A DNA stretch of 64,000 nucleotides from a virus (IMGVR_UViG_3300025120_000019); one strand, 5' to 3'. Shown: positions 2 to 23,282, counted from the first letter of the stretch. Numbers and translations are program-made. Notes: generated by a model not told the origin, from the letters alone.

Positions 2-259
2 AAATGTTTTTTAACTAATGAACTAAAAAATTATTTACATGAAAATGTTGCTATGAAATCAGACAATCCAAAACTACATATTGCAAATAAAGGTAACGGA
101 ACTGTAGAATTACTAATAGGTTTAGGATACGGACTTGAAAATACTCCACATAATAAAGTGTTTTATAACGGAAATCATGATCCTATATGGAACCACCAAT
201 CAAGAAAGTGGGGTTTAAGGCAAACTTATAGAAAGAAAATTATTACACAGCAAGTTTAA
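2..259 (+). CDS. 3' part of a gene entering from outside the window; possibly nitroreductase-like
   Basis: The frame of the 53..259 ORF is open back to position 2 (KCFLTNELKNYLHENVAM...). ELLIGLGY resembles a nitroreductase C-terminal motif, but the match is weak. Confidence 0.45.
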   Translation, partial: KCFLTNELKNYLHENVAMKSDNPKLHIANKGNGTVELLIGLGYGLENTPHNKVFYNGNHDPIWNHQSRKWGLRQTYRKKIITQQV

Positions 260-1460
260 AACTTCTTGCAATTATATAATCAGAAATAGGGGTTGGCAAA
301 AAATCTTGGACTTTTTTATTATTTAATTTGTCCAATGCTTTAGTACTTTCAGATAATTTTTTCCAGTCTGACTTTTTTACTTTATGATCTTTAAAATTTT
401 CTGTATATTTTATAACATTTTTAAATTTTAAGAGTGACCAATGATAATTATAATGTCTTAAAACTTGTTCACAATCAGCTATTAATTTTTCTTTAAATTC
501 AATAGGGGCAAATTTAATATCAAACTCGTGATCCGGAGGTTTTAAGTTTACATCAATATTTATAGAAGCACCCATATCTATTGCTAATTTTCCTAAGGCG
601 GGCATTTCAAACATATTATAAAATTGTAGTACAGTAGCCATTGTAAAACCTCTTGCATCACTTTCATTTACAAAATCTTTGATTAAATATAAATTTTCTT
701 TAACTTTATCAAAGTTACCATGATGTCTAATGTAGTTGTAAACATTACCGGTACCGTCTATACTTACATTAACTATAACTGACTTAAATTTTTTCATTTT
801 TTCTATAAGTCTTTTGTTAAATTTTGTTGCATTAGTTGTAAATCTTAAGCTTAAATTTTTAGCATAATTATTTTCAATTGACCAATCTATTACTTCTAAA
901 AAATATTTACAAGCTGTAGGTTCTCCTCCTGTAACTTTAAGTAATTGTAATCCTTCTTCAATTAACTGTTTTGTATAAGCAACTTTCTCTTGAGATCTAG
1001 CCAGATCGCTCCACTTGCGAATATGGAGTGCTTGTAAGGTATGTAAATAATGCGGAACATCCTTACCACGTTTGTCTCTAAATGCTTCTTCAACAAGACT
1101 ACTATCACTAGGTTTACACATAACACAAGCTAAATTACAAGTGTTTGAATATGCAATATCTAAAAATGTAATTTTACTTTTATTCAAATCAATAGGCAAA
1201 CCAAATTGTTCAATAGCTCTTTCTCTAGCACTTTGTACACCTTTATTTTCATCAATCTGACATACACTGCATACCTTAGGAAATTTTCCTTTAATCATTT
1301 GTTTTCTGCTTTTATTATGCTCAAATGTATCTATTTTATCATTAAAATTTAACATAGCCCATTCATGATTATAATATGAATTACAGCAAGGAGCAACTTT
1401 TCCTTGAGTATCTATGTTTTGATGCATCCATAGATAAGGACATATTACTTCACTATGCAT
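243..1460 (-). CDS. Radical SAM protein with N-terminal twitch/SPASM-like Cys cluster
   Basis: CNLACVMC (CxxxCxxC), TGGEP, TTNAT and VSIDG motifs; N-terminal CPYLW...PCC...CSVC. Confidence 0.9.
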   Translation of the reverse strand: MHSEVICPYLWMHQNIDTQGKVAPCCNSYYNHEWAMLNFNDKIDTFEHNKSRKQMIKGKFPKVCSVCQIDENKGVQSARERAIEQFGLPIDLNKSKITFLDIAYSNTCNLACVMCKPSDSSLVEEAFRDKRGKDVPHYLHTLQALHIRKWSDLARSQEKVAYTKQLIEEGLQLLKVTGGEPTACKYFLEVIDWSIENNYAKNLSLRFTTNATKFNKRLIEKMKKFKSVIVNVSIDGTGNVYNYIRHHGNFDKVKENLYLIKDFVNESDARGFTMATVLQFYNMFEMPALGKLAIDMGASINIDVNLKPPDHEFDIKFAPIEFKEKLIADCEQVLRHYNYHWSLLKFKNVIKYTENFKDHKVKKSDWKKLSESTKALDKLNNKKVQDFLPTPISDYIIARSFKLAV

Positions 1461-2544
1461 CTAATTTAATCTCATTGTGATATGCTTTGTTTTTTGCACA
1501 GGTCCTAATACAACGTGCAAAATGTAATTCATGATCAGGATCCCAACTTGCTCCTAATAATTTTGTGTACCAAGGATGTTGTAAAATTTCATCTACAGTA
1601 TGATAATTTAAACTATTCCAGTTTGGTTCAAATTGATTTAATCTATCAATTATACCTTCTTGATTTTTAAAAGCACTATCATATAAAAAACAACAAGGCC
1701 ATAAAGTAGCATTTGCTCCGATAAATATTTCACCTTCGTGTATATATTTACAAACTACTGTTTTTAATATTTCTTTCTTTTTATCATCAAAGTTTTTATT
1801 TTTATTTTTGTGCAATTTATATTGCATAATAAATTTATCTAGTTCAGCTACCTGTGTTTTTTTACTATGCTCTTTTTTACCTGTTGTTGTGATTACTTTC
1901 TTTTCAACAACAACTTTCCTTTTCTCTTTATCTTTTTTTGCAATAGTAGCCACCCAATTTTGTAAACTATTCCTCATTCCTGTTCTGGTAGCAAAATTAA
2001 ATCCTAATGTATTTGCGTGTATCCTAGCCTTTTCTAACTCATGCTCATTGTGATCAAATACTATATAAATCCATGTAGCAGAACCTTCGTTTGCGTAATT
2101 TGCATAGGCTTGCATATTCCTTGCAACGATACTAAATTTTGTTTTGACCCTGTAAATATGATTTGTTTCTTCATGTCCATCAACACAGAAATGTATAAAA
2201 ACAAGTCCAGGACGTTGTTTTGAAATTTTTCCCATACGTTCCCACCAAGCCACTGGCTGAACACCTCCATTGGTACTAAGCTCGCAATAACCTCCATAGC
2301 TTGTTAGATAGTCAACCATATCTACACATTCTACGTGCATTGCAGGATCGCCAAGAACACCACAAAATTTAAATGATTTTCCGTCTATACTTTCTTTATT
2401 TGGAAAAATTTGTTTTATCTTTTCAAAATTTAAATTTTGGATATTTAATTTGTCCATGTTCTGTGTCCTTGCACAACCAGGACACGCGGCATTGCAATCA
2501 CTTGTTATTTCAAGTTCAATTTTTTTGAGATTTGCTAAATTCAT
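1453..2544 (-). CDS. Radical SAM protein with C-terminal SPASM/twitch-like domain
   Basis: ELEITSDCNAACPGC, CGVLGDP, STNGG, FCVDG; C-terminal C...PCC...CIRTC. Confidence 0.9.
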   Translation of the reverse strand: MNLANLKKIELEITSDCNAACPGCARTQNMDKLNIQNLNFEKIKQIFPNKESIDGKSFKFCGVLGDPAMHVECVDMVDYLTSYGGYCELSTNGGVQPVAWWERMGKISKQRPGLVFIHFCVDGHEETNHIYRVKTKFSIVARNMQAYANYANEGSATWIYIVFDHNEHELEKARIHANTLGFNFATRTGMRNSLQNWVATIAKKDKEKRKVVVEKKVITTTGKKEHSKKTQVAELDKFIMQYKLHKNKNKNFDDKKKEILKTVVCKYIHEGEIFIGANATLWPCCFLYDSAFKNQEGIIDRLNQFEPNWNSLNYHTVDEILQHPWYTKLLGASWDPDHELHFARCIRTCAKNKAYHNEIKLDA

Positions 2545-2565
2545 TAAATACGTATATAATCCTTC

Positions 2566-2579
2566 ATAAATATATTTAT
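2566..2579. promoter_or_regulatory. Palindromic pair of late-promoter boxes (ATAAATA/TATTTAT) between divergent radical SAM genes
   Basis: Perfect 14-bp palindrome ATAAATATATTTAT in the 59-bp divergent gap; gives TAAATA on both strands. Confidence 0.55.
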
Positions 2580-2603
2580 CACTTGTACTTTTTGGAAAAA
2601 AAT

Positions 2604-3905
2604 ATGAAAAAAACAGAATATTGGAATAGTATGCTGGCAGAAAATAAACAAAATAATAGTGAAATTCTACAGGTCAAAGATAATAACAAAATGTGTACTG
2701 CTCCATTTAATAGTTTGTATGTAGGACAACATAATTTAGTATCACATTGTTGTGGATCTAAATATCCGATAGGATACACAAATGAACAAACATTAAGTGA
2801 AATTATGGATGGAGAAAAATCAATAGATACTAGGCGGCAGTTGTTAAAAGGAGAATATCCTAACCATTGTGAAAGTTGTGATCATTTTGAACAAAGGTCA
2901 GGTAAAATACATCCTGTAAGAGATTTTTTCAAAAAATATAAATATCACCGATATAATGTAAAAACAAACGGTGAGGTTAAAAAGCACGATATTAAATTTC
3001 TTGACTTGCTGTTTAGTAATAAATGCAATTTTGCTTGCATGGGATGTAATGCAGAACTTAGTTCAACTATTGCAGATAATTATACAGATGCTTATGAAAT
3101 TTTTACTAAAGGACCATTTGGTAATGGAGAAATAAGACAGACAAATTGGGAATCATCACCTGACCATATAATTGATTTTGTAATAAAGCACAAAGACACA
3201 ATTAAAAAAATACATCTTAATGGAGGTGAACCATGGATGCAAGTAGGAGTGCATAAATTATTAGATAAGATGTTAGAACATGGGTTGCATAAAAAAATAG
3301 AACTCTGGACTCATACAAACGGAAGTATTCGTAATTACAAAGGTGTAAATATATTAGAGGATTATTTAAAACACTGGGGGGAAAAGGTTAGTGTATCTCT
3401 TAGCCATGATATGTATTATGAAAAAGGAGAATATGTAAGATATGGGTTAAAAACTAAAAAATGGGAAAATACACTACAACGACTACTAGAGATAAATGCA
3501 ACCGTATCTATAAGCTGTGCTTACAATATTTTTAATGCAACAAATTTACAAAATTTATACAATTACTACAGAAAAACACTTGGGTTCAAAGGCTATCTAT
3601 CTATGGGTATGTGGATAGATCCAAAACCATTTTCTGCACCAATGTTACAATTGGATCCTATACTAATGACAAAAGCACAAAACGAATTAAAAGCGATACG
3701 TACTATAAAAAGTCAAAATGATGATACTTACTGTGTTTGGGACACAAAACGTTTACTTGCCTTTCTTAACACCAAATGGTCAAATGATGAAATACAAGCT
3801 CATAAAAAAACTTTTCCTATAGCAATTGATAAGTTTGATAAACTTAGAAACACAGATTTTTTACAAACTTTTCCTGAATTAAAAAACTTATATTACTTAA
3901 ATTGA
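2604..3905 (+). CDS. Radical SAM protein with N-terminal twitch/SPASM-like Cys cluster
   Basis: CNFACMGC, NGGEP, HTNGS; N-terminal CTAPF...HCC...CESC. Start moved to ATG 2604 because the TTG at 2532 overlaps the divergent gene. Confidence 0.88.
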   Translation: MKKTEYWNSMLAENKQNNSEILQVKDNNKMCTAPFNSLYVGQHNLVSHCCGSKYPIGYTNEQTLSEIMDGEKSIDTRRQLLKGEYPNHCESCDHFEQRSGKIHPVRDFFKKYKYHRYNVKTNGEVKKHDIKFLDLLFSNKCNFACMGCNAELSSTIADNYTDAYEIFTKGPFGNGEIRQTNWESSPDHIIDFVIKHKDTIKKIHLNGGEPWMQVGVHKLLDKMLEHGLHKKIELWTHTNGSIRNYKGVNILEDYLKHWGEKVSVSLSHDMYYEKGEYVRYGLKTKKWENTLQRLLEINATVSISCAYNIFNATNLQNLYNYYRKTLGFKGYLSMGMWIDPKPFSAPMLQLDPILMTKAQNELKAIRTIKSQNDDTYCVWDTKRLLAFLNTKWSNDEIQAHKKTFPIAIDKFDKLRNTDFLQTFPELKNLYYLN

Positions 3906-4978
3906 GCCGCAAAAGGATCAAAATTGGCTCCGCATTTTTGTGAACATACACCTAATTTTCCTCCTTTAACATTATCTTTGTTCCAGCTTTGCTCAATACT
4001 AGAAAGCAATGGTCCTTCCATAACCCTTTTTAAATCATTCATAATAACATTTATACCGCCTTTTCCGCCGGCTCCGTTAATATAGTCCCAAATTTGTTCA
4101 ACTTTAGGATCTATATGCCACCACTTGTACATACGTCCAGCTGTCCAACAACACGGCATTAAAAGTCCTTCTGCTGTGATAAAAATATTGCCAGCATCCT
4201 TAACTTTACATTTAATTTTTGCTTTATCATAATAATCTAGCATACTGCCGAATTGTTTTACAATAGTTTTTTCTTTTTGTAATTCTTTATTTTCAAATTT
4301 AGTTTCTGTAGGTTTAGCAAGATTAGTTGTTTTTTGTCCTTTGCGGTTTATGGCTTGATGTGTATCTTTACCTGTCATTTTTTTAGTGCTAAAAAATCTT
4401 CCTGTTTTTTTTGGAATAAACTTTTCACATCCCCATTCTTCTGCTAATTTTCTTGCTTCTTCAACTTGATGTTGATTATGCTCAAATATTATGTAATCCC
4501 ATCTAGCTCTGCCACCGGCGGCAATGAAGGCCCGCATATTGGTTTCTACCTTTTCCCAAACAACATTTTGTCTATATAGATGATTAGTATCTTCTAAACC
4601 GTCAACACTAAAAATTACAGCGCCTGCTCTTCCAAGTACTTGTGCAAGTTCTGTCCACCAAGGCATATCCCTAGCACCTGCATTGGTATTCATGCTTAGC
4701 CACATACTATCGTTGTGTTCTCTAAAATATTTAAAAATTTCTAAAGTATCTCTTGCAACAATAGGATCACCTAGATTACCACACATATACATTATTTTTA
4801 ATTGTTTTATAAAATCGGGCTTGAAAATTTTTTTAGCTTTTTGTAATGTTATTTCTGCATTAGTCATATGTGGATTGTCTGCTCCGCCATTCATATTCCT
4901 ATCACACATAGGACAGGCCGCTTGACACTTCTGCGTTACTTCTAAATGAACTTCACGTATATCTTCGTATCTATACAT
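3893..4978 (-). CDS. Radical SAM protein with C-terminal SPASM/twitch-like domain
   Basis: HLEVTQKCQAACPMC, CGNLGDP, NTNAG, FSVDG; PCC and CSQKC near the C-terminus; paralog of 1453..2544. Confidence 0.9.
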   Translation of the reverse strand: MYRYEDIREVHLEVTQKCQAACPMCDRNMNGGADNPHMTNAEITLQKAKKIFKPDFIKQLKIMYMCGNLGDPIVARDTLEIFKYFREHNDSMWLSMNTNAGARDMPWWTELAQVLGRAGAVIFSVDGLEDTNHLYRQNVVWEKVETNMRAFIAAGGRARWDYIIFEHNQHQVEEARKLAEEWGCEKFIPKKTGRFFSTKKMTGKDTHQAINRKGQKTTNLAKPTETKFENKELQKEKTIVKQFGSMLDYYDKAKIKCKVKDAGNIFITAEGLLMPCCWTAGRMYKWWHIDPKVEQIWDYINGAGGKGGINVIMNDLKRVMEGPLLSSIEQSWNKDNVKGGKLGVCSQKCGANFDPFAAQFK

Positions 4979-5192
4979 CGCTAACTAACTTTACATCCTT
5001 ACCAGGTCCAACTTTGCTTGGAAGATCACCATATTGTTCAATGTACCATTCTATTACTGCTTTGTACCACAACTGACTATTATGATGTGCTTTTTTATTA
5101 AACATATGTATGTTATTATTTGTTGCTTGCATAGTGCTTAATGCCCTTGCACTTTCTTTCTGCAAATCTCTAAGATTTAAATCATCAAGCAT
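4971..5192 (-). CDS. Small hypothetical protein (73 aa)
   Basis: Tightly packed between its neighbours (1-bp gap upstream, 8-bp overlap downstream). Confidence 0.75.
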   Translation of the reverse strand: MLDDLNLRDLQKESARALSTMQATNNNIHMFNKKAHHNSQLWYKAVIEWYIEQYGDLPSKVGPGKDVKLVSDV

Positions 5193-5193
5193 T

Positions 5194-6252
5194 TTACTTT
5201 ATACCAATTTTCATAAATCTTTTGTACTTTGGTAATTGCAATTCTCCTTCATATAACACAGTTGTCATTGGTGACTTATTGCTAAACTCTTTTAAATCCT
5301 TAGAACAATTTACGTGTTCTTCAATCTCAAAATAATCATTTCCTTGTATTACAACAATTTTACCGTCGGGTATATTGTTATACCATTGTAAAAAATTATT
5401 TATATGTTCACTACTTGTGTTTATTATTGTATCTGGCGAGTCATATAATAATTCGCTGTCACCATTTCCTTTGAATACTTTATAACAATGTTCATCATTG
5501 AAATTTATTTCGTGAATATCTTGGCAACAAGATTTAAATCTCCAATCTTCTGTTACCCATTTTTTGTTAAAAATTTCCGCTATATGACTAGTTGTTGGAT
5601 CGGAATCAAAGTTTCTAATTTTTAATAAATCTATATCAGCATCAAATAGCATAGTAGCAAGTGTAGCATACCAGCCTGCACAAAGAAATATAGTTCCAAG
5701 AGGTCCAGTAGCTATACTACATTTTTCAAGTTCATTTACTAACCAAAGCTTACTTTCAAGCTGGCCTCTACTAAAACAATCTTCGTCAAATGCAATTTCT
5801 TTTTTATGCAAAGTTTTAAAAGCATAAACAAATTGATTAGGTACTTTCCATTGTTCTAACAATCTCCATAAATCAAAATAATTATCATTAAGGACTACAC
5901 CTTTTAGATCCTTATTATCTATTAATCTAAATATACTATGTATATTTTTATCAAGAACAGCTTTTCTCACGTCATCTGTACCAGGTAACAATCTAAATAG
6001 ACTATGTATATTTCCCTCTAAGGCCGCTTTACGTAAATCTTCTAATTCACCAATTATCCGTTTATTATCGATAATTCTAAATATACTATGCCAGTTTTCT
6101 TCCATAATTGCTTTACGAAGATCTTCTGAACAATCTGATAATTTGAATATACTTGCTAAATCTCTATCTATATATGCTCTTCTTAAATCTGCAATACGTT
6201 CATCATGCTTATATAGTAACTCAAACCTATCTAGTAATTTATAAATCTCCAT
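5194..6252 (-). CDS. Class I SAM-dependent methyltransferase-like protein with N-terminal helical repeats
   Basis: IFLCAGWYATLA (motif I-like), NFDSD (motif II acidic), DTIINTSSEH; five DLRKA...NxHSIFRL repeats. Confidence 0.65.
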   Translation of the reverse strand: MEIYKLLDRFELLYKHDERIADLRRAYIDRDLASIFKLSDCSEDLRKAIMEENWHSIFRIIDNKRIIGELEDLRKAALEGNIHSLFRLLPGTDDVRKAVLDKNIHSIFRLIDNKDLKGVVLNDNYFDLWRLLEQWKVPNQFVYAFKTLHKKEIAFDEDCFSRGQLESKLWLVNELEKCSIATGPLGTIFLCAGWYATLATMLFDADIDLLKIRNFDSDPTTSHIAEIFNKKWVTEDWRFKSCCQDIHEINFNDEHCYKVFKGNGDSELLYDSPDTIINTSSEHINNFLQWYNNIPDGKIVVIQGNDYFEIEEHVNCSKDLKEFSNKSPMTTVLYEGELQLPKYKRFMKIGIK

Positions 6253-7882
6253 TAAATTGTTCCCTTAGCCAGTCAAAGTCGTTTATTTTTTTCAACGCAT
6301 CTACATTACCTCTGTTTGCACTACCATACATCATACCTTCTTTTGCACCTTTAATTGCATATTCACCAAAGGGCTTATCCTTTCCAACGGTAGACCAAGT
6401 TGTTAACCTTTCGTCAGTTTCATCTGTCTTTTGTCTATCTATAATTTTACTACTTAATTTTGCACATTCCCTAAATGCACTTTTCCATGTATTAAAAGGA
6501 TCAGTATTAAATCCAGTGATATTAGATACAAGTTGAATAGGTTTAAATTTTGCACTAATACTTGTTGTCATATCTGGCTTGTTAACGTCCATGTTTAATG
6601 TAAGTTCTCTTGGAAATAGTTTTACACCTCCGTATCCATATATTAAATTATTAACTGGATTTTTACTTCTCCAAACATGAACATGATCATACTGCCAAGC
6701 AGGTGCCTGATAATCAAAATCAAAGTCGTCTAGTATTACTGCATCTCCATCTATAATCCAAAGCATTTCTGTTGAACATAGTTTCGCCGCTTCAATATGG
6801 GCTTGATGTATTCCTTTAACTCCGTGTACTCTTTTACACTGTGGAAACCTTTTACATATTTTTTTATAATTTTCCTCAGCGTTTGGTTCTTGGTAACTTA
6901 TAAACACCATATCATAAGGCTTAGGACTACTTGCTAATTCATCATGATCTTTTTTATGTGCAAGAAACTTAAATTCCCATTCACGTGGATGTATTTTTGC
7001 ATACTTACTGCATAGTATTATACCATCGTTGTATTTGCCGTTTAAAAAAGTATGGTTAATTTGTCTATCATACTCGTTGTTGTATTCAAAATAATGATTA
7101 AAAGTAAAACTATCATCTACTTCTACGTTATCAGGTATAACATAAAACATTTCTGTTGGACTTTCAACTACAGCATTTTGATAATCAATGTAATTACTTA
7201 CATTATAAACTTGATATTTTACTGGACCACTACCAACTATATCCCATTCTTTACAATTTACAATGAATCTATAATCAATTTCCTTTTTAGTTATAGGCCT
7301 GTGTTTTGACAATAAAAACAGTCCGTTTCTATATTCTTTGCCATATACATTATGAATGAAATTATGATTTTGATATCTATCTATTTTTTCATGATGATTA
7401 ATATAAAAATTTCTTATAAATTTATTATCAACAAAAATATTTGCACTACTCATCCAAAATAAATCTGTTGTTGAATTTTGCATTGCATATTCATAATCTG
7501 CAAAAGATTCAATTTCAAAAATATCAAATGGCTTTGGGTTACTAGCTAAAATATCAACTTCTTTTTTATTGGTGTAAAATCTGTATTCTATTTCTTTGGT
7601 ACTAATGGGAGCATCTTTTGGCACCAAAGAAATACCATCATAACTGTCGCCATTTTTAAATACATGAATATACTTCTGACTCCATTCGTCTGGTGTATAA
7701 CTAAAATCAAAGTTATTATCTATCTCAATATCAGGATACACTACCCAGAAAAATTTTGTTAAAGACGTCCGTTGTGCCGTAAACAAACTATCTGCAAACT
7801 TGGCAATAGGAATTTTTTTCTTAATTGTATTATATTGTTCTTTATAAATACCTTTGTCAGCAATAAAATATACATCATACAT
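6239..7882 (-). CDS. Glycosyltransferase-like (GT-A) protein with tandem degenerate N-terminal domains
   Basis: DMVFISYQEPNAEEN, RVHGVKGIHQAH, WIIDGD (DxD), YGYGGVKLFP. Start set to ATG 7882 because the TTG at 7897 lies inside the promoter. Confidence 0.7.
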   Translation of the reverse strand: MYDVYFIADKGIYKEQYNTIKKKIPIAKFADSLFTAQRTSLTKFFWVVYPDIEIDNNFDFSYTPDEWSQKYIHVFKNGDSYDGISLVPKDAPISTKEIEYRFYTNKKEVDILASNPKPFDIFEIESFADYEYAMQNSTTDLFWMSSANIFVDNKFIRNFYINHHEKIDRYQNHNFIHNVYGKEYRNGLFLLSKHRPITKKEIDYRFIVNCKEWDIVGSGPVKYQVYNVSNYIDYQNAVVESPTEMFYVIPDNVEVDDSFTFNHYFEYNNEYDRQINHTFLNGKYNDGIILCSKYAKIHPREWEFKFLAHKKDHDELASSPKPYDMVFISYQEPNAEENYKKICKRFPQCKRVHGVKGIHQAHIEAAKLCSTEMLWIIDGDAVILDDFDFDYQAPAWQYDHVHVWRSKNPVNNLIYGYGGVKLFPRELTLNMDVNKPDMTTSISAKFKPIQLVSNITGFNTDPFNTWKSAFRECAKLSSKIIDRQKTDETDERLTTWSTVGKDKPFGEYAIKGAKEGMMYGSANRGNVDALKKINDFDWLREQFNGDL

Positions 7883-7888
7883 ATAGTA

Positions 7889-7917
7889 ATTATACAAAAG
7901 AATTTCGTATTTGTCAA
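7889..7917 (-). promoter_or_regulatory. Consensus sigma70 promoter (extended -10)
   Basis: Minus strand TTGACA (7917-7912), 17 bp, TG-TATAAT (7894-7889). Confidence 0.85.
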
Positions 7918-7925
7918 TATTAGAA

Positions 7926-7931
7926 TAAATA
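7926..7931 (+). promoter_or_regulatory. T4-type late promoter box
   Basis: ATAAATA followed by AGGAG SD and ATG 7949. Confidence 0.55.
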
Positions 7932-7948
7932 TAATATAGGAGAAAAAA

Positions 7949-9391
7949 ATGACAGATTTTATTCCAGGCGATTCGTACCGCTTAGACATTGTAGGAGCAG
8001 ATAGCTCAATCATAATTGATAGCTGGCTTAGTCAAGTAAAAGCAAGTGTTGTAAACAAAGATGGACAACTACAAGTAGATACCACATTTGGTAAGTTGTA
8101 CGGACCAATGGTAGGAGATGTTGAACACGAAAGTGGAGATATATTACTCAATTCAGATTCAAGAACAGCATATTTTGATGTTGTAGGTAGTATTAAAAAT
8201 CAAAGCGGTGATAAAGTTTTGGATATGAATACTGGGCTACTTACTGGTAATTTAAAAGGTAGTATTGTAGATAGTAATACAAATGAATTAGTTTGGGATT
8301 CATCTACAAGCACATTTAAAGCTGATAGAATTGTTGGTGATTTTTATGGAACCTTACATGGCGAACTTGACCTAATTGGGGAAGTTGCTGGTACATTTAG
8401 AGGTAACCTGAATGGAAATACAACCGGTCATCATTATGGACACGTTACAGGAACTACAGAAGGCACACATATTGGTGAAGTTAAAAATGAAGATGGTGTA
8501 GTCACATTACACGCAAATGGCGATTTAAACGGAAATTTAAAAGGTAAAATTATTACTCCAGATGGTGATGATGTCTTAGCATATCATGATATCCTTAAAC
8601 ATTATAATTTAAAAGCAGGTATAGAACATCATAAAGATAGTAAAACAATTTTAGAATTAAATGATGATCATACTCATGCTACAATTAGGGCACACATTGG
8701 TTGGTATGATGGTACAAATGTTTTAGCATTAAAACGCTGGGATGAATCAGAAAAACCTGCTACGTTAGCTGAATATTATGGAGATGTGGTAGGTGGAGAT
8801 TATTATAGTCCTACAAAAGAACAAATGTTGAGATACAGAGATGCTACACAACTGTTAGGAACAAATAACGGACTTATTGAGATTGGCAATAATGCAACAG
8901 AAACAGTTAAAATATTTGGTGATAGTATAAACTATCATGTACAATCAAACCCAGTAAATACAACCAATCTTGCACATATAAATTATATGGCAGTAAATGG
9001 CGATGTATCTAATAAATTACCAATTAATCCTGGAGATAGTATGATGATATCTGCTGTTCATGCATGGGATGGTACAGGCTATAAAATAGGTGGTGGATTT
9101 GGATTTTTTGCTAACACCGAGGTTGTACCAGATCCAGATTTAGAAATTTATCCTACAGATTTTGGTATTACTTTAAGTGACGGAAGAACTCTACCGAGTG
9201 CTTTTTGGGATAATCCCACAGGATTAAATTTTAACGGTAAAGGTGTTTTGTCTGTTCCGATATTTCAAGCTAAAGGACACACAGAAGCAAGTAAAACAGA
9301 AGTTACTCCAACAGCTGGTATGATAATTTTTAACACAACAACTAAAAAGTTTCAAGGACATGACGGAGATAGATGGGTTAACCTTCACTAA
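7949..9391 (+). CDS. Fibre/virion-like protein with Gxxx repeats
   Basis: AGGAG SD; GNLKG/GTFRGNLNGNTTG repeats; C-terminal GMIIFNTTTKKFQGHDGDRW motif typical of phage fibre proteins. Confidence 0.6.
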   Translation: MTDFIPGDSYRLDIVGADSSIIIDSWLSQVKASVVNKDGQLQVDTTFGKLYGPMVGDVEHESGDILLNSDSRTAYFDVVGSIKNQSGDKVLDMNTGLLTGNLKGSIVDSNTNELVWDSSTSTFKADRIVGDFYGTLHGELDLIGEVAGTFRGNLNGNTTGHHYGHVTGTTEGTHIGEVKNEDGVVTLHANGDLNGNLKGKIITPDGDDVLAYHDILKHYNLKAGIEHHKDSKTILELNDDHTHATIRAHIGWYDGTNVLALKRWDESEKPATLAEYYGDVVGGDYYSPTKEQMLRYRDATQLLGTNNGLIEIGNNATETVKIFGDSINYHVQSNPVNTTNLAHINYMAVNGDVSNKLPINPGDSMMISAVHAWDGTGYKIGGGFGFFANTEVVPDPDLEIYPTDFGITLSDGRTLPSAFWDNPTGLNFNGKGVLSVPIFQAKGHTEASKTEVTPTAGMIIFNTTTKKFQGHDGDRWVNLH

Positions 9392-9977
9392 ACAAAGGTA
9401 AAACTTTTTCAGCTTCAGGCCATCTATTAGGTTTAAGTGTTTCATAAAACTTTTCTACATTAATTTTCCAAAAAGTTTGGAATGTTCCTTTATATTCTAA
9501 CTCTATAGGATCTTCTAGTACTTTTGCTTTATGAAAATATTTTGCCCAAAATAGATGAACTTTATTTTGACTACCTACGTTTCCTGTATGTGTACTAAGA
9601 TACAATGGTTTATCTCTGCCAACACCTTCGATACAAGCCGGTAACAAAAATTGTGAAGCGTGAGAATAATGTATATCAGTTTTTCCTTTAAGACTTTTTA
9701 CACGTTGTTTACCAATTAAGTGTGTAAGGACACAAGTTCTTGCCCCTATTCGATATGCGTCTTTTCCTAAAATACCAAGCTCTTGTAACTTGTGGGCAAC
9801 TACTGTGCCAACAGGATTATTATTATATAACAATATCCACATATTAGCATCTTCATATTTTTTAATATAATCAATTAATATTTCTCTACTACAGTTATTA
9901 TAAAACTTTTTTTTAAAAGCTTCTGCATAAAAATTATTTAGATCTATATCATTATTATATAATTTTATATCAAACAT
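9378..9977 (-). CDS. Hypothetical protein, possible GNAT-like fold
   Basis: Start MFDIKLY overlaps the upstream stop (ATGTTTGA); WILLYNNNPVG...YRIGARTC pattern is GNAT-like. Confidence 0.55.
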   Translation of the reverse strand: MFDIKLYNNDIDLNNFYAEAFKKKFYNNCSREILIDYIKKYEDANMWILLYNNNPVGTVVAHKLQELGILGKDAYRIGARTCVLTHLIGKQRVKSLKGKTDIHYSHASQFLLPACIEGVGRDKPLYLSTHTGNVGSQNKVHLFWAKYFHKAKVLEDPIELEYKGTFQTFWKINVEKFYETLKPNRWPEAEKVLPLFSEG

Positions 9978-11346
9978 ATTCTTTACATAAATTAAAAAAA
10001 TCTTCCATCTCAGGAAAAACTTGTACGTGATCAACATTTCGTCTACGTCCTTGCTCTTCAAAGAAGTTATGAAAATCTTTTCTACCTTGTATAATACGTT
10101 CTAGTGGATATTCAGTACTTGCCATATAATCAACTACACGTCTAAACTTTTCATATTCAATTGTAGTAAATGCATCTTTACGATTATCATCTACGTTTTC
10201 TTTTATAAATTGTAAATGATCATACATATATGGCATATATTCTTTTGGTAAAATATTAATATCGTATTGTAATGGTTCTTTTAGATACGGAGTATCAAAC
10301 CCTAATCTGTTCCATCTATACGTTTCAACATCATTATATTTGGCACGCCATTCTAATATCTTTTCTAATAATGTCCTAAATGTTGTTACACAAAAAATAT
10401 TAAATGTTATCATTAATGTCATTGGTGCTGTAGTATTCATCATCCAGTAATCTAAATTACGCTCAAATGTTTCTATATCTAAACCATCACGTATATATTC
10501 AGCACGTTTTCCCCAAGTGTCAATGCTTGTAAACAATTTAAATCTTCTTATTTTTTTATTTACAAGTAAATCATTTACACGATTTGTAAATTTTTCTAAC
10601 TGTCTAGGTTTGCCGCCTAAGTTACTATTACAATTTAATTCTAAATCTGGTTTAGGATCAGCATCTAACATATCAAATAGTCTATACGTGCTTTGTTGAA
10701 TAGTAGGCTCACCTCCAGTGATTCTTAAAATATGCAATTCTTTACTTAGCTCTGGCCACCACTTCCAAAAAGCATCAAGATATGGATTATTTTCTTCGTT
10801 ATAAAGTTGAAACCAATCTATATCGCATCTATGGTTAGTAACCATATCATAAGGTCCATGTTGTTTGATTTCATTGTAAAATCTACTACTTGCTTTAGGA
10901 TGACAATAGCCGCAACGGAAATTGCATTCGTTACCAAAACTTACTTCCAAGTATTCCGGATTTACATCAAACGTTGCTCCTCCTTCTTTGACTGCTTTTA
11001 ACCTATGTTTGAAGAATATAGTTTGATTACGTTGTTTTCTATCACTTATATAATCTGCACCCATTGCTTCAATCTTCCAACAATAGTTACAACCACTAGG
11101 TTGTTGCCCTTTCATCATTGCTGACCGTTCGGCTTTTTTTACTTTTGTATTATGTATAGCACTTGGGTTAGTTTTAATTTCTTCAATATCTATTTTGTGA
11201 GGAGCAGGATGATAACAACTGTGTGTTTCGCCTGTTTGAAAATAGATATTAGCATGATACCATTTAGCAAAGCAAAATGTTGGTGAAATTTCTTTTGTAA
11301 TTTCATCAATGCGTTTAATTTCTTCGGATTCGGAGCGTTCTGCCAT
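9970..11346 (-). CDS. Radical SAM protein with N-terminal twitch-like domain
   Basis: CNFRCGYC, ITGGEP, NSNLG, FTSID; N-terminal FCFAKW...SCYH...CNYCW. Confidence 0.9.
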   Translation of the reverse strand: MAERSESEEIKRIDEITKEISPTFCFAKWYHANIYFQTGETHSCYHPAPHKIDIEEIKTNPSAIHNTKVKKAERSAMMKGQQPSGCNYCWKIEAMGADYISDRKQRNQTIFFKHRLKAVKEGGATFDVNPEYLEVSFGNECNFRCGYCHPKASSRFYNEIKQHGPYDMVTNHRCDIDWFQLYNEENNPYLDAFWKWWPELSKELHILRITGGEPTIQQSTYRLFDMLDADPKPDLELNCNSNLGGKPRQLEKFTNRVNDLLVNKKIRRFKLFTSIDTWGKRAEYIRDGLDIETFERNLDYWMMNTTAPMTLMITFNIFCVTTFRTLLEKILEWRAKYNDVETYRWNRLGFDTPYLKEPLQYDINILPKEYMPYMYDHLQFIKENVDDNRKDAFTTIEYEKFRRVVDYMASTEYPLERIIQGRKDFHNFFEEQGRRRNVDHVQVFPEMEDFFNLCKEYV

Positions 11347-11349
11347 CCA

Positions 11350-12273
11350 TTACTCTCTATCTAAAAATTGCTTGCTGTTGTCACGAGCGGGATTTTGATA
11401 GACTGTTTTAAAAAATTTACTTTGGTTAGCATCTAGCGGGTTTACTGCGATAGGTAGTTCTAGTTCTTCTGTTAATAGATCGCCCAAGTCTTGTGAATAA
11501 CATTCCATATCTTCTTCTACTAACTCACCCTTTTCATTCCAATATTGATTTAAGTATTTAAAGTCACGTACATTAACAAAGTCCCAATCGGTACACATTG
11601 TCTTATATAAGCCTTCTCTTGCGCCATAAATTGCCCAACGGCCGTATTCCACATCTGCACCTACCATAAGCCAAATATACAAGCGATGTAGATTTTTCCA
11701 ATGATTTTTATTAAATTCGTCAACTGATACTCGTACACCTCTATCTAATGCCATTTTTACACCTTCGCGAAATCCTGCTCTCCATGCTTGATGCGGAGTG
11801 GCATTATTATATATATCACTATAGACTCCGTTCATTTGTATATACTGTGTATTCCAACAGAAGTCTACTTGTGCATGAGGATTATCTTCAGGTGCATTTT
11901 CGTGTGTACGCATATCTAAAACATACTGTTTAGGCCAACACTTAATTCCTCCGTTACCATAGCACAATCCATTTATATTATTTTTTGCTGTCCAACTTAT
12001 AACTTTATCAGTAAGATCAGTATTCTCACCAAAATCAATAGACTGAGAAAGAAAGTCTTGTCTAATCCTGTTATCACCATCAACTGTTATAAAGCGATCA
12101 GATTCACTTTCGTTAGCCGCGGCTTTGTGTGCGGCGTCAGATCCTTCTATACCATGTACACGTTTTGCCCATGGAACTTTTTTGCATAAGTCTGCATAAT
12201 TTTGTTCTGCATTAGGCTCATCGTAGCTTAGGTATATTATGTCATAATCAATAACACGAAACTGTTTAGGCAT
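11350..12273 (-). CDS. Glycosyltransferase-like (GT-A) protein
   Basis: DIIYLSYDEPNAEQN, RVHGIEGSDAAH, ITVDGD, YGNGGIKCWP; paralog of the C-terminal domain of 6239..7882. Start 12273 follows GAGGA (alternative 12285). Confidence 0.7.
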   Translation of the reverse strand: MPKQFRVIDYDIIYLSYDEPNAEQNYADLCKKVPWAKRVHGIEGSDAAHKAAANESESDRFITVDGDNRIRQDFLSQSIDFGENTDLTDKVISWTAKNNINGLCYGNGGIKCWPKQYVLDMRTHENAPEDNPHAQVDFCWNTQYIQMNGVYSDIYNNATPHQAWRAGFREGVKMALDRGVRVSVDEFNKNHWKNLHRLYIWLMVGADVEYGRWAIYGAREGLYKTMCTDWDFVNVRDFKYLNQYWNEKGELVEEDMECYSQDLGDLLTEELELPIAVNPLDANQSKFFKTVYQNPARDNSKQFLDRE

Positions 12274-12826
12274 ATATTTCCTCATGATAATAACTAGAAA
12301 ACTTTCTTACAGTATATAAGCTAACACTTGTTTTGTCAAATTCAAACTTGCTATCAAACGGTATTTTTAAATCTTTTTGAAATGTTAAAGTTTTATGTAA
12401 AACATTTGGATCGTATAACTTCGTTACACTATAAACTTGTCTAGTTGGATCTATTGAAATATTTTGTGATTCGATGTACAATTTAAATTTTGTATCTAGA
12501 ATTAATTCCCAACATTTTTCTACTTGGTTTTGTCTTATTATTATTTCATTATTATCTTGTTTAATTTTAGGAATTTCATATACAAAATTATATGTATCAT
12601 GACTCTCTGCATATTGCTGGATATTTTTTAAAATATATTTTTTTTCTAAAAAATCATATTCAACTTTGTAATCTCGCAAAGATTCTGATCCTTCAGCAAA
12701 TTTTCTGACTTGCTCAAAATCAACTAATAAGTTTTCTAAATTATCATCAGGATTTCTTGCAATTCTATTAATATTGCCATTATCATCAAAACATACATAT
12801 CTATCATTATTGATTGTTACTGCCAT
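12266..12826 (-). CDS. Hypothetical protein
   Basis: 186-aa ORF coupled to both neighbours in the operon. Confidence 0.75.
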   Translation of the reverse strand: MAVTINNDRYVCFDDNGNINRIARNPDDNLENLLVDFEQVRKFAEGSESLRDYKVEYDFLEKKYILKNIQQYAESHDTYNFVYEIPKIKQDNNEIIIRQNQVEKCWELILDTKFKLYIESQNISIDPTRQVYSVTKLYDPNVLHKTLTFQKDLKIPFDSKFEFDKTSVSLYTVRKFSSYYHEEIYA

Positions 12827-13668
12827 TATATTCCCAAGTACTTCTCGTATATTGTAGTTATTCTTTCTGTGACAAAATCATTTTCAGTATAGTGAAATAT
12901 TCCACTTTGTTTATGATTTCCAATTTTTAATTGTAAATCTTCACCTAAATATGTTCCTACTCTATTTTGCCATTTATCAACTACAGATTGATCCCAATTT
13001 TGTACACGTGGTTTCATATGTATAAAACTAGGATATTTTACTCTATTATTTGTAACTTGATTTTCAACATTCATAATTTTAATAGCAATAGATCCTGATA
13101 AATCAATACTGCATTTTCTTTGATATAATCTTCCGCCAGCGTGTTGTCTATAAAATTTTTGCCAGTTATTTGTAATCATTTCTAACCACGTATAATACTC
13201 ATGAGCAAGATCACTTTTTTTAAAATAATGCAATCCAGTATAAATGTTTGGCAAATAATTTGTTGAAAATGTGTTACGATAATAATTATTAGTTACTAGT
13301 TCATTTCTATATGTATAGACTTTGTTTGTAAAAAATAATTCGTAGTTTTTTAAAAAACTAAACCAAGTTGAAATATTCTGCAACACTAGCATATCAGTAT
13401 CCATGACAATAGTTTCATCATATGGTGTAGCATGATAAATTTTCCATCTGTTTTCAATTTTCCAATCCGAGTCTTGTGCATGATCACCCCATGGAATATC
13501 TACAATATCATCAAAAATTTGTTTGTATTTTCCATTAACATTTTCATTTGTAATTAAACAGATTTTTGCATTTTCATTTGTGGTACGAATACTCATAGCA
13601 TTCAAATATGCTTGCTTTACATAATCAGCATTTGAATTTTGTGCTAACATAGTAAAATTATTGCTCAT
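12826..13668 (-). CDS. Glycosyltransferase-like (GT8/GT71-type DxD)
   Basis: SIRTTN..ICLITN, FDDIV, TPYDETIVMDTDML, TGLHYFKKS. Confidence 0.7.
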   Translation of the reverse strand: MSNNFTMLAQNSNADYVKQAYLNAMSIRTTNENAKICLITNENVNGKYKQIFDDIVDIPWGDHAQDSDWKIENRWKIYHATPYDETIVMDTDMLVLQNISTWFSFLKNYELFFTNKVYTYRNELVTNNYYRNTFSTNYLPNIYTGLHYFKKSDLAHEYYTWLEMITNNWQKFYRQHAGGRLYQRKCSIDLSGSIAIKIMNVENQVTNNRVKYPSFIHMKPRVQNWDQSVVDKWQNRVGTYLGEDLQLKIGNHKQSGIFHYTENDFVTERITTIYEKYLGI

Positions 13669-14485
13669 TAATTACTCTCTCAAGGCTAAATTTATTCATT
13701 ACGTGTAAATTACTTCCTTTAAACTTAGTCAAAGTATATTCGCCTAATCTATCAGCTTTTTCTAGAAGTACTGTAAATTCATCATCTATAATATTTAAAA
13801 GTATATCTTTATCTATACTATAAAACTTTTTTCCAGGCATAGTGCCAACAAAGCCGCCTTCGATATATCCAGATAATATATGTACTGCTATACTAAAAGA
13901 AAAATCATTTCTATATACAGTATTTTTAAACTGATACACTCCTCTGTAATGCATATAATTATCTTTTATATGTTTTATTAAATTAAAAAATATTTCGTTA
14001 ATTTTATTTTTCTTAAAATAAATTACTGTTGCCCAGTAAAAAGGTATACTAGTGTCACTAATCCTTTTAAATTCTGATGTATTATCATGTATACCCAAAT
14101 GTGTAGCGTCATTATATAATAACAAATCTTTTTGATGATCAAAACAATTTAGCAACTTATCATTTGCAATAATATAATCTGTATCCATAACAATAGTTTG
14201 CTCATAAGGCGTTAAGTCATAACTTAATTCTCTACCAGAATTTTTAAAAGACAATACTCTCTTACCTAAACTTCCATCTCTATATGTTTTTGTATTTTTA
14301 AAAGTTTTTTGATCTAAGTTTATTACAGTATCAAAGTGCTCTTTAAGTTCAGACGTATTAACATCTGTAACTAAACTTACTGGTAAATCTAAATATTTTT
14401 TTATTCTGTTTGCACAAAAAATTGCTTGCTTAATATAGTTTATGCTTTCATTATTAAATGCAAAAAGTAATACACCTTTGCTCAT
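13658..14485 (-). CDS. Glycosyltransferase-like (GT8/GT71-type DxD)
   Basis: KGVLLFA, LPVSLVTD, TPYEQTIVMDTDY, WATVIYFKK, RNDFSFSIA; paralog of 12826..13668. Confidence 0.7.
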   Translation of the reverse strand: MSKGVLLFAFNNESINYIKQAIFCANRIKKYLDLPVSLVTDVNTSELKEHFDTVINLDQKTFKNTKTYRDGSLGKRVLSFKNSGRELSYDLTPYEQTIVMDTDYIIANDKLLNCFDHQKDLLLYNDATHLGIHDNTSEFKRISDTSIPFYWATVIYFKKNKINEIFFNLIKHIKDNYMHYRGVYQFKNTVYRNDFSFSIAVHILSGYIEGGFVGTMPGKKFYSIDKDILLNIIDDEFTVLLEKADRLGEYTLTKFKGSNLHVMNKFSLERVINEQ

Positions 14486-14829
14486 AAATCCATTATACCT
14501 TGCACTGATCTATTTTGCTTTAACTTATTGTACTCCATTAAATACTTATTAGAAGCTACAAAATATGTAGAATGAACATTTTTAGTAAATTCTTCTAGAC
14601 TGTCTATTGCAATAGGAATACTATTATCATCAATTAAAACAGATTCTTCTTGCTCCATAGAAAGTAAGCACTGACAAAAACTAATAAGATCTTGTGTTAC
14701 AGTAAATTGTCCACCATTAAAATAATAAATTAAGTTTTCTTTATATTGTTCATTTAATAATCTTTTTTGATTATTTAGAGTAACCATATAATTACTCATA
14801 TCTAATGCTTTTTCAAGACGTTCATCCAT
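14482..14829 (-). CDS. Hypothetical protein (first gene of the glycosyltransferase operon)
   Basis: AGGAG SD, ATGA overlap with the next gene, promoter directly upstream. Confidence 0.8.
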   Translation of the reverse strand: MDERLEKALDMSNYMVTLNNQKRLLNEQYKENLIYYFNGGQFTVTQDLISFCQCLLSMEQEESVLIDDNSIPIAIDSLEEFTKNVHSTYFVASNKYLMEYNKLKQNRSVQGIMDL

Positions 14830-14852: not shown

Positions 14853-14881
14853 AGTATATAACAAAAATTTGCAAATGTCAA
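14853..14881 (-). promoter_or_regulatory. Sigma70 promoter
   Basis: Minus strand TTGACA (14881-14876), 17 bp, TATACT (14858-14853). Confidence 0.8.
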
Positions 14882-14895
14882 ATACAAAGTGGATA

Positions 14896-15975
14896 TTATA
14901 ACGAACTATCTACAGTTCCAGTTGGTGCTAATTGCACAATAGCATCAAACGAAGATGCACCTATTACAAAACTACTATTCGGTGTAAAGGTTAATAAATT
15001 ACTAGATACTGTTCCTCCTACCTGTTCATCAACTGGAGCATTTACACCTTCCAACTGACCTCCTGTGCCTGAATCGGCATCATCAAAAACTATTTCAAAA
15101 GTCATTTGACTTGTGCTAGGCAAAACAAGATTTATTTGATATTCGTTGTCATCATATATTTGAGTAACTGGTACAGTTCCTGGAGTACCTCCTGAAACGC
15201 CGCCTCCTTGTTTTGTATAAAGCCTTGTTGGACTATTAAAAAACCCACTACTAGTGGCTGTATTTGTACTAATGCTTCCAATAGTATATGTAGATCCTGT
15301 GCCACCAGATCCTAGTGATTCAGTTTTATAATCCGAACCCATTTTCCAAAAACGAATTTTACCCATTTCTGCTAAAATTCTGTTCCAGTCCCAATCTTTA
15401 CTGTTAGAAGTTCCGGTACTACCCCCGGTTAGACTTGCGTCAAAACGTATTTGTCCACCAGCATTAAAAAATTCATTTCTTTTCGCGGCACTTGCCCAAG
15501 ATACTGTTACTCTGTGTCCAATCCTAGAATTGGCTCCTGTACCCCATGCGGCAGTCCTAGAGCTTGCTACAGATACGCTTCCAGACGTTAACAAGTTTGA
15601 TTCATCAAAGTTAGCAGTTGGAAATTCTGTTGTTGACTCGTTAAAATTAACCACTGAATTTAATAAGTTTGTAAATTTAGTAATATTTGCATATACTATA
15701 ATATCACCAACATCAAAATCAGTTGTTAGAATAGCATTACTTGCAGATGCATTTTGATGTACATATCCTGCTTGTAAGTCTTTAAATAAATTAAATTGCT
15801 GTAGTTGTGTTACTGTATCACTTACTCCAGGTGTTGATCCACCTACTACAGTACTAGCATTCATATTTCTACCATAGCCCAAATCAGCATTGCTTGTACT
15901 AGGGCCTACTATTGTGTTTGTACTATTGAATATATTGTTATAATCACTAGCTGTAATTGGATCGCCGACTGCCAT
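14896..15975 (-). CDS. Virion structural (tail-associated) protein
   Basis: Ser/Thr/Gly-rich; shares FFNAGG.IRF.ASL and W..IL..MG.I.F motifs with 15984..17168. Confidence 0.65.
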   Translation of the reverse strand: MAVGDPITASDYNNIFNSTNTIVGPSTSNADLGYGRNMNASTVVGGSTPGVSDTVTQLQQFNLFKDLQAGYVHQNASASNAILTTDFDVGDIIVYANITKFTNLLNSVVNFNESTTEFPTANFDESNLLTSGSVSVASSRTAAWGTGANSRIGHRVTVSWASAAKRNEFFNAGGQIRFDASLTGGSTGTSNSKDWDWNRILAEMGKIRFWKMGSDYKTESLGSGGTGSTYTIGSISTNTATSSGFFNSPTRLYTKQGGGVSGGTPGTVPVTQIYDDNEYQINLVLPSTSQMTFEIVFDDADSGTGGQLEGVNAPVDEQVGGTVSSNLLTFTPNSSFVIGASSFDAIVQLAPTGTVDSSL

Positions 15976-15983
15976 TTCTACTC

Positions 15984-23276: not shown

Positions 23277-23282
23277 TATTTA
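23277..23282 (-). promoter_or_regulatory. Late promoter box overlapping the stop codon of the giant gene
   Basis: GATAAATAC on the minus strand; its TAA is the stop of 23280..37049. Confidence 0.5.

Follow-up and report, generated by a model that had tools for sequence, protein, structure and literature searches.

What does a phage make with five radical S-adenosylmethionine (SAM) enzymes, four glycosyltransferase-type proteins and a methyltransferase encoded beside its tail fibre genes? The question is raised by positions 243-14829 of a 64,000-nt stretch of the large, uncultured marine virus IMGVR_UViG_3300025120_000019 (the window, i.e. the whole stretch of DNA that was analysed), for which an earlier note had proposed that a glycan is built and then tailored on the fibres or baseplate. 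We found that predicted folds, profile matches and bacterial gene clusters support the enzymology of this proposal, while fibres or baseplate as the acceptor did not gain such support. Glycan assembly and tailoring is in our judgement the probable chemistry of the locus, and it is the best supported one because of the folds of the enzymes, the fusion of one of their families to GT-B glycosyltransferases, and the GT2 glycosyltransferases and sugar epimerases that neighbour the bacterial counterparts. That the virion fibre proteins are the acceptor is suggested by the position of the genes, and we put it forward tentatively.

Organisation of the locus

The region contains 15 open reading frames (ORFs) of 73-552 aa, 13 of them on the minus strand. 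These, together with the promoter and the fibre genes that precede them, are as follows.

R1n, 243-1460, minus strand: radical SAM enzyme with an N-terminal twitch domain; NF033640 244 bits; CX3CX2C at residue 108; N-terminal Cys 7, 25/26, 64 and 67
R2c, 1453-2544, minus strand: radical SAM enzyme with a C-terminal Cys cluster; CX3CX2C at residue 17; PF04055 23.3 bits, below the gathering score
R3n, 2532-3905, plus strand: N-twitch radical SAM enzyme; NF033640 238 bits; SPASM at residues 55-117, Fer4_12; it probably starts at a later ATG
R4c, 3893-4978, minus strand: paralogue of the radical SAM enzyme R2c, likewise with a C-terminal Cys cluster; CX3CX2C at residue 18; matches phrog_21308
s73, 4971-5192, minus strand: small conserved protein without Cys; 8-nt overlap with R4c
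MT, 5194-6252, minus strand: class I SAM-dependent methyltransferase domain, preceded by helical repeats in the N-terminal domain (AlphaFold2 and Foldseek)
GTrep, 6239-7897, minus strand: three degenerate repeats of about 110 aa and an intact GT-A domain (residues 326-550), paralogue of GTa; DGD at residue 383
fib480, 7949-9391, plus strand: fibre-like protein within the island; its C-terminus matches tail-fibre phrog_30742; in place in 53 relatives
p227, 9378-9977, minus strand: about 199 aa from the likely ATG (9977); candidate GNAT-fold acyltransferase
R5n, 9970-11346, minus strand: N-twitch radical SAM enzyme of the conserved core; NF033640 300 bits
GTa, 11350-12285, minus strand: glycosyltransferase with a GT-A fold and a C-terminal domain that is helical, from an unnamed family
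p186, 12266-12826, minus strand: conserved core protein, in the same place in relatives; profile match to ORF351 of Ralstonia phage RsoM2USA (7e-12)
G8b, 12826-13668, minus strand: GT8-like (glycogenin-like) DxD protein
G8a, 13658-14485, minus strand: GT8-like (glycogenin-like) DxD protein, paralogue of G8b; matches RsoM2USA ORF353 (3.5e-75)
p115, 14482-14829, minus strand: small conserved first gene of the enzyme operon; 4-nt overlap with G8a; matches RsoM2USA ORF354 (1e-26)
Sigma70-type promoter, 14853-14881, minus strand: TTGACA-N17-TATACT, at the head of the enzyme operon
F359 and F394, 14896-17168, minus strand: Ser/Thr-rich fibre-like proteins, candidate acceptors; 24% Ser+Thr

The tight coupling described earlier is a genuine property of the locus, nearly all co-oriented neighbours overlapping or lying 1-20 nt apart. 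In the enzymes of this part of the window no hydrophobic stretch was seen that could span a membrane, and scans with family libraries found no flippase, polymerase or lipid-carrier transferase family in this part of the window. Pfam, PHROG and NCBIfam yielded nothing for GTa, G8a, G8b, MT, p227, p186, p115 and s73, a megablast search of the region against 50,697 phage records gave no match, and in the ESM Atlas p186 retrieved viral hypothetical proteins only.

Radical SAM enzymes

The earlier note was right in counting five radical SAM enzymes with auxiliary Cys clusters: all five are real ORFs in which the CX3CX2C motif is intact and the further invariant Cys are also kept, and from their sequences each appears fit for catalysis. 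The curated cut-off (170 bits) of the NCBIfam model NF033640 ('N_Twi_rSAM', twitch domain-containing radical SAM protein) was passed by R1n, R3n and R5n and not by R4c (48 bits) or R2c (20 bits). In the former three, Pfam places the SPASM-type Cys domain N-terminal to the radical SAM core, and C25, C44, C86, C89, C141, C145 and C148 (R5n numbering) as well as a GGE motif were invariant among 16 divergent paralogues of about 20% identity. R2c and R4c have the reverse domain order, and the CX3CX2C motif plus six more Cys, five of them C-terminal, were invariant in 24/24 homologues (residues 66, 257, 276, 277, 345 and 349 in R4c). Both proteins matched phrog_21308 'radical SAM' (1e-16 to 1e-18), and their PF04055 scores (23.3 bits for R2c and 26.9 for R4c) fell below the gathering score of 29.5. 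R5n is about 86% identical among relatives, whereas the other radical SAM enzymes match at 23-30% only; R5n appears to be the conserved radical SAM enzyme of the locus, and R1n to R4c to be members of a fast-diverging array of paralogues.

Like BtrN, anSME, SkfB and TvgB, these enzymes combine a CX3CX2C cluster with one Cys-ligated auxiliary cluster, SkfB and 8vpo being the closest solved sequences. In R1n, R3n and R5n, however, the auxiliary domain is N-terminal to the core, the reverse of the arrangement in those characterised enzymes. No characterised NF033640 member was found.

Glycosyltransferase-like pairs

Both of the previously described pairs of paralogous DxD proteins were recovered, one formed by G8a and G8b (about 22% identity, invariant D-T-D) and the other by GTa and the C-terminal domain of GTrep (invariant DGD). 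A joint G8a/G8b profile matched glycogenin-1/2 (GT8) in the PDB with E values of 8e-5 to 3e-3, over the first 100 positions only, the DxD included. Glycogenin is a protein-priming GT8 enzyme. As none of 25 G8-type members matched PF01501 (GT8), the two proteins are called GT8-like here and not GT8 members; two of the 25 matched Mannosyl_trans3 at 0.006. GTa is 34% identical to the last 225 residues of GTrep, and a profile of the GTa family run with hmmsearch on GTrep gave 2e-71 for this C-terminal domain and faint matches only for the three N-terminal copies, where the DxD is no longer intact.

Modelled with AlphaFold2 from 61 diverse sequences (predicted local distance difference test, pLDDT, 94), GTa has the GT-A fold on which the glycosyltransferase reading depended. 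Foldseek searches with this model returned GT-A-type enzymes only (ThuS/SunS, WrtF, PBCV-1 A64R, ppGalNAc-T, TarP/S). With VIA-align, GTa residues 12-160 superposed on 6p61, B4GALNT1, STIV A197, SpsA and WrtF with Z values of 8-9.9 (root-mean-square deviation about 3.2 Å over about 138 residues), values to be read with the fact that the same-fold nucleotidyltransferases MobA and IspD also reach a Z of about 8. The D69-G-D71 motif directly follows the fourth strand (64-69), and among the 61 family members D71 is invariant and D69 nearly so. A helical domain occupies residues 164-295, and in this succession of a GT-A catalytic domain and a helical domain GTa resembles SunS and ThuS, its top Foldseek matches (VIA Z about 8). 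It differs from them in that identity is 10-14%, only the GT-A core aligns well and there is no glycocin-type precursor peptide. A sequence-profile search of the PDB with GTa found nothing. Likewise, GTa did not match the Pfam GT2 family PF00535, for which distant members of its family scored 17-19 bits against a threshold of 23.3, and we accordingly consider GTa to belong to a separate, unnamed GT-A family. This family is large, with more than 8,000 close relatives lacking a Pfam domain and 1,633 clusters at 50% identity. Its domains were also seen fused to GT-B glycosyltransferases of the GT28/UDPGT type (P0200, P0231 and P0253, about 730 aa) and to Sel1 repeats or an SCP2 lipid-binding domain (among P0183, P0202 and P0249), and they may be repeated up to nine times (P0178).

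Methyltransferase and p227

The methyltransferase-like nature of MT was borne out at the level of the fold. The AlphaFold2 model of this 352-aa protein (pLDDT 93) shows a helical-repeat domain followed by a class I methyltransferase fold, with NodS, NRMT2, Coq5 and TehB as top Foldseek matches (E about 1e-6, probability 1.0; target TM score 0.68-0.72 for NodS). At least 500 PDB chains matched at E ≤ 1e-3, and all of the matches listed were methyltransferases. NodS methylates a sugar amine. In the MT alignment a G-x-W-x-G loop is conserved, and D216 and D218, after the strand 211-216, are nearly invariant. By sequence, the PDB offered only a faint ARM-repeat similarity over the first 145 residues.

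The description of p227 as GNAT-like has two weak leads in its favour, an ESM Atlas cluster (0.95) with Acetyltransf_1 in 15% of its members and FeeM at E ≥ 0.03 in 4 members, and finds no backing in Pfam, NCBIfam, PHROG or the PDB, where p227 had no match. Its gene is co-directional with R5n here and in the closest relatives, and inverted (convergent) in most others (L004, L012, L036 and further loci), indicating that a local inversion took place.

A core conserved in distant jumbo phages

The baseplate wedge protein groups this phage with jumbo myophages of the Rak2/PA5oct/Atu_ph07/XacN1 type. More than 300 IMG/VR loci carry a GTa orthologue, and gene order was read from the 40 longest of 80 fetched loci. 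The order T675-T631-T503-F394-F359-p115-G8a-G8b-p186-GTa-R5n was kept in nearly all 40, with identities of 86% for R5n, about 78-79% for GTa and about 81-82% for s73 compared with about 40-50% for the fibres. Among 50,697 cultured-phage records, R5n, GTa and G8a were jointly matched only in the Ralstonia jumbo phage RsoM2USA; R5n alone had weak partial matches in two Vibrio phages (27% identity over half its length). RsoM2USA ORF355-ORF347 are collinear with F394, p115, G8a, G8b, p186, GTa, R5n and the C-terminal domains of GTrep and MT, and define a nine-gene core. The paper describing RsoM2USA labels ORF347-355 as hypothetical. The cluster stays linked to fibre genes in about 80 IMG/VR relatives as well as in this cultured phage, so that the loss of linkage which the earlier note would have taken as a refutation was not seen.

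Radical SAM genes are numerous in these genomes. Three relatives carry 10-12 per contig, of which 7-10 score above the NF033640 cut-off, and in the closest relative (G001, locus L083) the island extends beyond the position of the left window edge with more radical SAM genes, two nitroreductase-family genes, three Asp/Asn beta-hydroxylase-like genes, one SET-domain gene and one SDR-like gene. The SET-domain gene (protein lysine methyltransferase type; L083:420-911) lies at the far end of the island, beside the three beta-hydroxylase-like genes. In RsoM2USA another N-twitch radical SAM gene of very divergent sequence, ORF202 (L001:7956-9338), lies about 90 kb from the core and among hypothetical genes. 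The full fibre-plus-enzyme core of the phage lineage was also found on PBPT01000082 (L142, 153 kb) and PBPT01000016 (L148, 335 kb), assigned to the metagenome-assembled genome RS350 of 'Candidatus Neomarinimicrobiota'; these are either misbinned phage contigs or a hint at the host.

Fibre genes and promoters

The enzyme genes had been placed directly downstream of Ser/Thr-rich fibre genes on the same strand, and this position holds, yet a conserved promoter of their own separates them from those genes. The five upstream genes T675, T631, T503, F394 and F359 match tail-collar, gp10 and fibre PHROGs, and their products contain 20-24% Ser+Thr, versus about 10% in the enzymes. F394 and F359 share a C-terminal domain also found in RsoM2USA ORF355 and in PA5oct EST35_0123, whose gene follows that of a gp10-like tail pin and whose record is marked as detected by electrospray tandem mass spectrometry (ESI-MS/MS; virion proteome); a profile-versus-PDB search with F394/F359 found nothing. 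The motif D-S-[S/T] was in excess in T631 (18736-20631; 5 versus 1.0 expected) and in a 4589-aa protein (23280-37049; 12 versus 4.4), and showed no excess in F359, F394 or the enzymes. Such an excess could reflect repeat-domain structure and not an acceptor motif, and it was not counted as evidence. The Campylobacter-type N-sequon was not enriched.

The TTGACA-N17-TATACT site lies between F359 and p115, and in 70 of 73 relatives the p115 gene has a similar site upstream of it, compared with 38 of 3000 random 100-nt windows (1.3%). This indicates that the enzymes form a transcription unit of their own, which is probably read by the host RNA polymerase; read-through from the fibre genes is possible. 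Further sites matching at 11-12 of 12 positions precede GTa and GTrep. That of GTrep, a perfect 12/12 TTGACA-N17-TATAAT at 7889-7917 on the minus strand, is located at the divergent GTrep/fib480 gap (7898-7948), and its -10 box ends about 7 nt before the likely ATG (7882), so that the mRNA may be leaderless or the start of the gene may be located further in. The T4 late-promoter word TATAAATA was considered too and rejected, as it was not enriched (6 matches versus 14.7 expected).

Counterparts in Bdellovibrionota

A genome scan with an alignment of the R5n subfamily revealed orthologues of 35-60% identity that are common in Bdellovibrionota, including closed chromosomes and a cultured Bdellovibrio, and that often stand in tandem arrays with up to seven N-twitch paralogues. 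Their neighbours include GT2 glycosyltransferases (9 loci), members of the NAD-dependent sugar (NDP-sugar) epimerase/dehydratase family (8) and of an ABC ATPase family (9). The C-terminal domain of MT, on its own, is encoded directly upstream of the R5n orthologue in 9 bacterial loci, and GTa occurs in 2. One Halobacteriovoraceae locus, where the genes run hydroxylase-like, QueC-like, GTa, MT, FAD amine oxidase, two GT2 and R5n, has in essence the tool set of the phage within a bacterium.

In a FastTree phylogeny of 89 sequences the phage R5n clades nest within the diversity of Bdellovibrionota, which suggests that R5n was transferred from bacteria to phages; this direction is tentative, as the root of the tree falls on long branches of paralogues. 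In three Bdellovibrionota chromosomes (L127:12297-21392, L107 and L150), six to seven N-twitch paralogues stand in tandem. The L127 array is flanked by the housekeeping genes PhoH and GGDEF, with no glycosyltransferase nearby.

A proposed pathway and its alternatives

We propose that the block would constitute a cytoplasmic glyco-modification pathway composed of soluble enzymes only. Its four glycosyltransferase-type proteins (two GT8-like and two of the unnamed GT-A family) would add sugars stepwise, from host nucleotide sugars, to a soluble acceptor. The twitch radical SAM enzymes would then edit the sugar or its attachment site via hydrogen-atom abstraction, the edits being oxidation, epimerisation, dehydration or the formation of C-C or C-X bonds, while MT would add methyl groups and p227 may add an acyl group. 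As acceptor we envisage the Ser/Thr-rich fibre and baseplate-distal proteins encoded just upstream, in which case progeny virions would bear an unusual glycan. The lack of any membrane component among the window enzymes favours a soluble acceptor, and the fixed place after the fibre genes in two distant jumbo-phage lineages favours virion proteins. We infer that the radical SAM steps act by sugar chemistry.

Several observations weigh against this proposal. G8a, G8b and GTa reach no Pfam glycosyltransferase family threshold. The closest solved radical SAM cores are maturases of RiPPs (peptides made on the ribosome and modified after translation; TvgB-type 8vpo and SkfB), followed by GDGT-MAS, viperin, MoaA and BlsE, so that sugar chemistry is not specifically indicated, and the beta-hydroxylase-like, SET and nitroreductase genes of relative G001 point equally to protein or peptide chemistry. 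Together, the RiPP-maturase-like cores and the protein-type hydroxylase and SET genes of relatives leave room for direct radical chemistry on protein. As to the acceptor, PA5oct has an F394-like virion protein without the enzyme module, bacteria have the same enzymes without any fibre gene, and the conserved sigma70-type promoter means that the enzyme operon is not simply part of the fibre operon. This promoter fits early expression, with which a host-directed, DNA-directed or metabolite role is also compatible; it is the autonomous host-type promoter and the fibre-less bacterial clusters that keep these other targets under consideration.

The same enzymology could be directed at an envelope glycan of the host (O-antigen, capsule or surface glycoprotein), remodelled during infection, for instance, to block superinfection or to prevent re-adsorption of progeny to the lysing cell; remodelling of the host surface had been raised by the earlier note itself as an alternative. 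Host-type, probably early, promoters would suit such a role, the GT2, NDP-sugar epimerase and ABC ATPase genes of the Bdellovibrionota clusters are the usual company of surface-polysaccharide genes, and host modification is the published reading for the GT8-rich host-recognition clusters of pelagimyophages (PMC7029224). We nevertheless regard it as unlikely, though a serious candidate: this part of the window encodes no membrane-bound transferase, flippase, ligase or transmembrane segment, so that the enzymes would need cytoplasmic intermediates of a host pathway, and neither the strong conservation of the core (seen in R5n and GTa) nor its fixation beside the fibres in two distant lineages is predicted by simple exclusion. 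It seems improbable that the product decorates no macromolecule and is instead a small metabolite, glycosylated or tailored by radical chemistry, of the kind represented by aminoglycosides, nucleosides or RiPP-glycocins. The mix of twitch/SPASM radical SAM enzymes, glycosyltransferases, methyltransferase and possible acyltransferase does resemble natural-product clusters, in relatives and bacteria it is joined by genes for QueC-like, FAD amine oxidase, nitroreductase and cupin hydroxylase proteins, RiPP maturases provide the nearest solved radical SAM cores, and the S-glycosyltransferases of glycocins, ThuS and SunS, rank among the top structural matches of GTa. However, Pfam and NCBIfam recognised no precursor peptide, RiPP recognition element (RRE) domain, exporter or scaffold-forming enzyme in the window, though a substrate of a non-canonical kind or the size of a protein is conceivable; s73 shows high conservation and is devoid of Cys; and the constant position next to the fibre genes would be left unexplained.

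Least probable of all, and very much so, is hypermodification of the phage DNA, in which the glycosyltransferases would glycosylate a modified base and the radical SAM, MT and QueC-like enzymes would tailor it for evasion of restriction. It would agree with early-type promoters, with soluble glycosyltransferases lacking lipid machinery, with QueC-like genes in bacterial cluster L132 and with the diverse glycans that phage glycosyltransferases put on DNA (Pyle et al. 2024, as cited in PMC12619734). Against it, no hydroxymethylase, nucleotide kinase or tRNA-guanine transglycosylase (TGT)/DpdA gene lies in or beside the island, which is embedded in a structural region, and the bacterial counterparts accompany polysaccharide-type genes. 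TGT was also missing from five relative contigs, a weak absence because these are only 20-41% complete, and the one ThyA-family gene, in relative G002, is about 65 kb from the island. Returning to modification of the virion, a broader version of our proposal, which we consider rather unlikely, holds that in jumbo phages a diversifying N-twitch radical SAM array (10-12 paralogues per genome, with Fe-S supply genes) works on a glycan that the phage has built or on the fibre proteins themselves, the toolkit being shared with predatory Bdellovibrionota by gene transfer. The lineage-distinct receptor-binding organelles produced in this way would amount to a combinatorial post-translational hypermodification of virions without described precedent.

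Relation to known systems

Glycosyltransferase and radical SAM cassettes in fibre regions have been published. Zaragoza-Solas et al. (2020, PMC7029224) described the host recognition cluster (HRC) of pelagimyophages and cyanomyophages, a large variable region in which tail fibre genes are accompanied by glycosyltransferases, GT8-type ones among them, and by cassettes of radical SAM genes that are not the same in close relatives; aquatic T4-related myophages have it too, and its glycosyltransferases were assigned to modification of the host O-chain. The locus described here resembles the HRC in combining fibre genes with glycosyltransferases, GT8-like ones included, and with radical SAM genes. 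It differs in that its phage belongs, by the baseplate wedge protein, to the Rak2/PA5oct/Atu_ph07-like jumbo group and not to the pelagimyophages, no pelagimyophage record of the phage collection was matched by R5n, GTa, G8a or F394, and neither the nine-gene core nor the N-twitch family nor the counterparts in bacteria are defined in PMC7029224. The papers on pelagimyophages and moraphages were considered as accounts of the same lineage and set aside, as they describe other lineages. Radical-SAM-rich marine phages are published as well: a T4-like environmental genome has 12 radical SAM genes and Fe-S supply genes (ATC, PaaD/SufT-type; Nishimura et al. 2017, PMC5332604), to be compared with the at least 10 radical SAM genes of the window relatives, although that report gives a count only, with no gene order, family assignment or link to glycosyltransferases or fibres. 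To these accounts the present analysis adds the assignment of the enzymes to families and folds, a core of nine genes that a cultured phage shares, the promoter conserved among relatives, and the counterparts in Bdellovibrionota.

Virus-encoded glycosylation of virions has parallels elsewhere. The capsids and tail tubes of mycobacteriophages reportedly carry glycans of this kind, as Freeman et al. are said to have described in 2023, and A64R of chlorovirus PBCV-1 is a soluble viral GT-A enzyme that acts in the cytoplasm on structural proteins. A64R (2p6w) is among the structural matches of GTa. These virion glycosylation systems are not known to include radical SAM enzymes.

Through this locus three enzyme families without a characterised member are defined: the N-twitch radical SAM enzymes, the family of GTa, which comprises about 1,600 clusters at 50% identity, and the MT domain that is found together with R5n. 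Because the cultured Ralstonia phage RsoM2USA carries the conserved core (ORF347-355), the nature of the product can be tested. Should the product be carried by the virion, phages would have their first example of tail structures whose glycosylation is tailored by radical SAM enzymes, and it would bear on host range, on the evasion of immunity or defence, and on why abundant aquatic phages invest so much coding capacity and iron in radical SAM enzymes.

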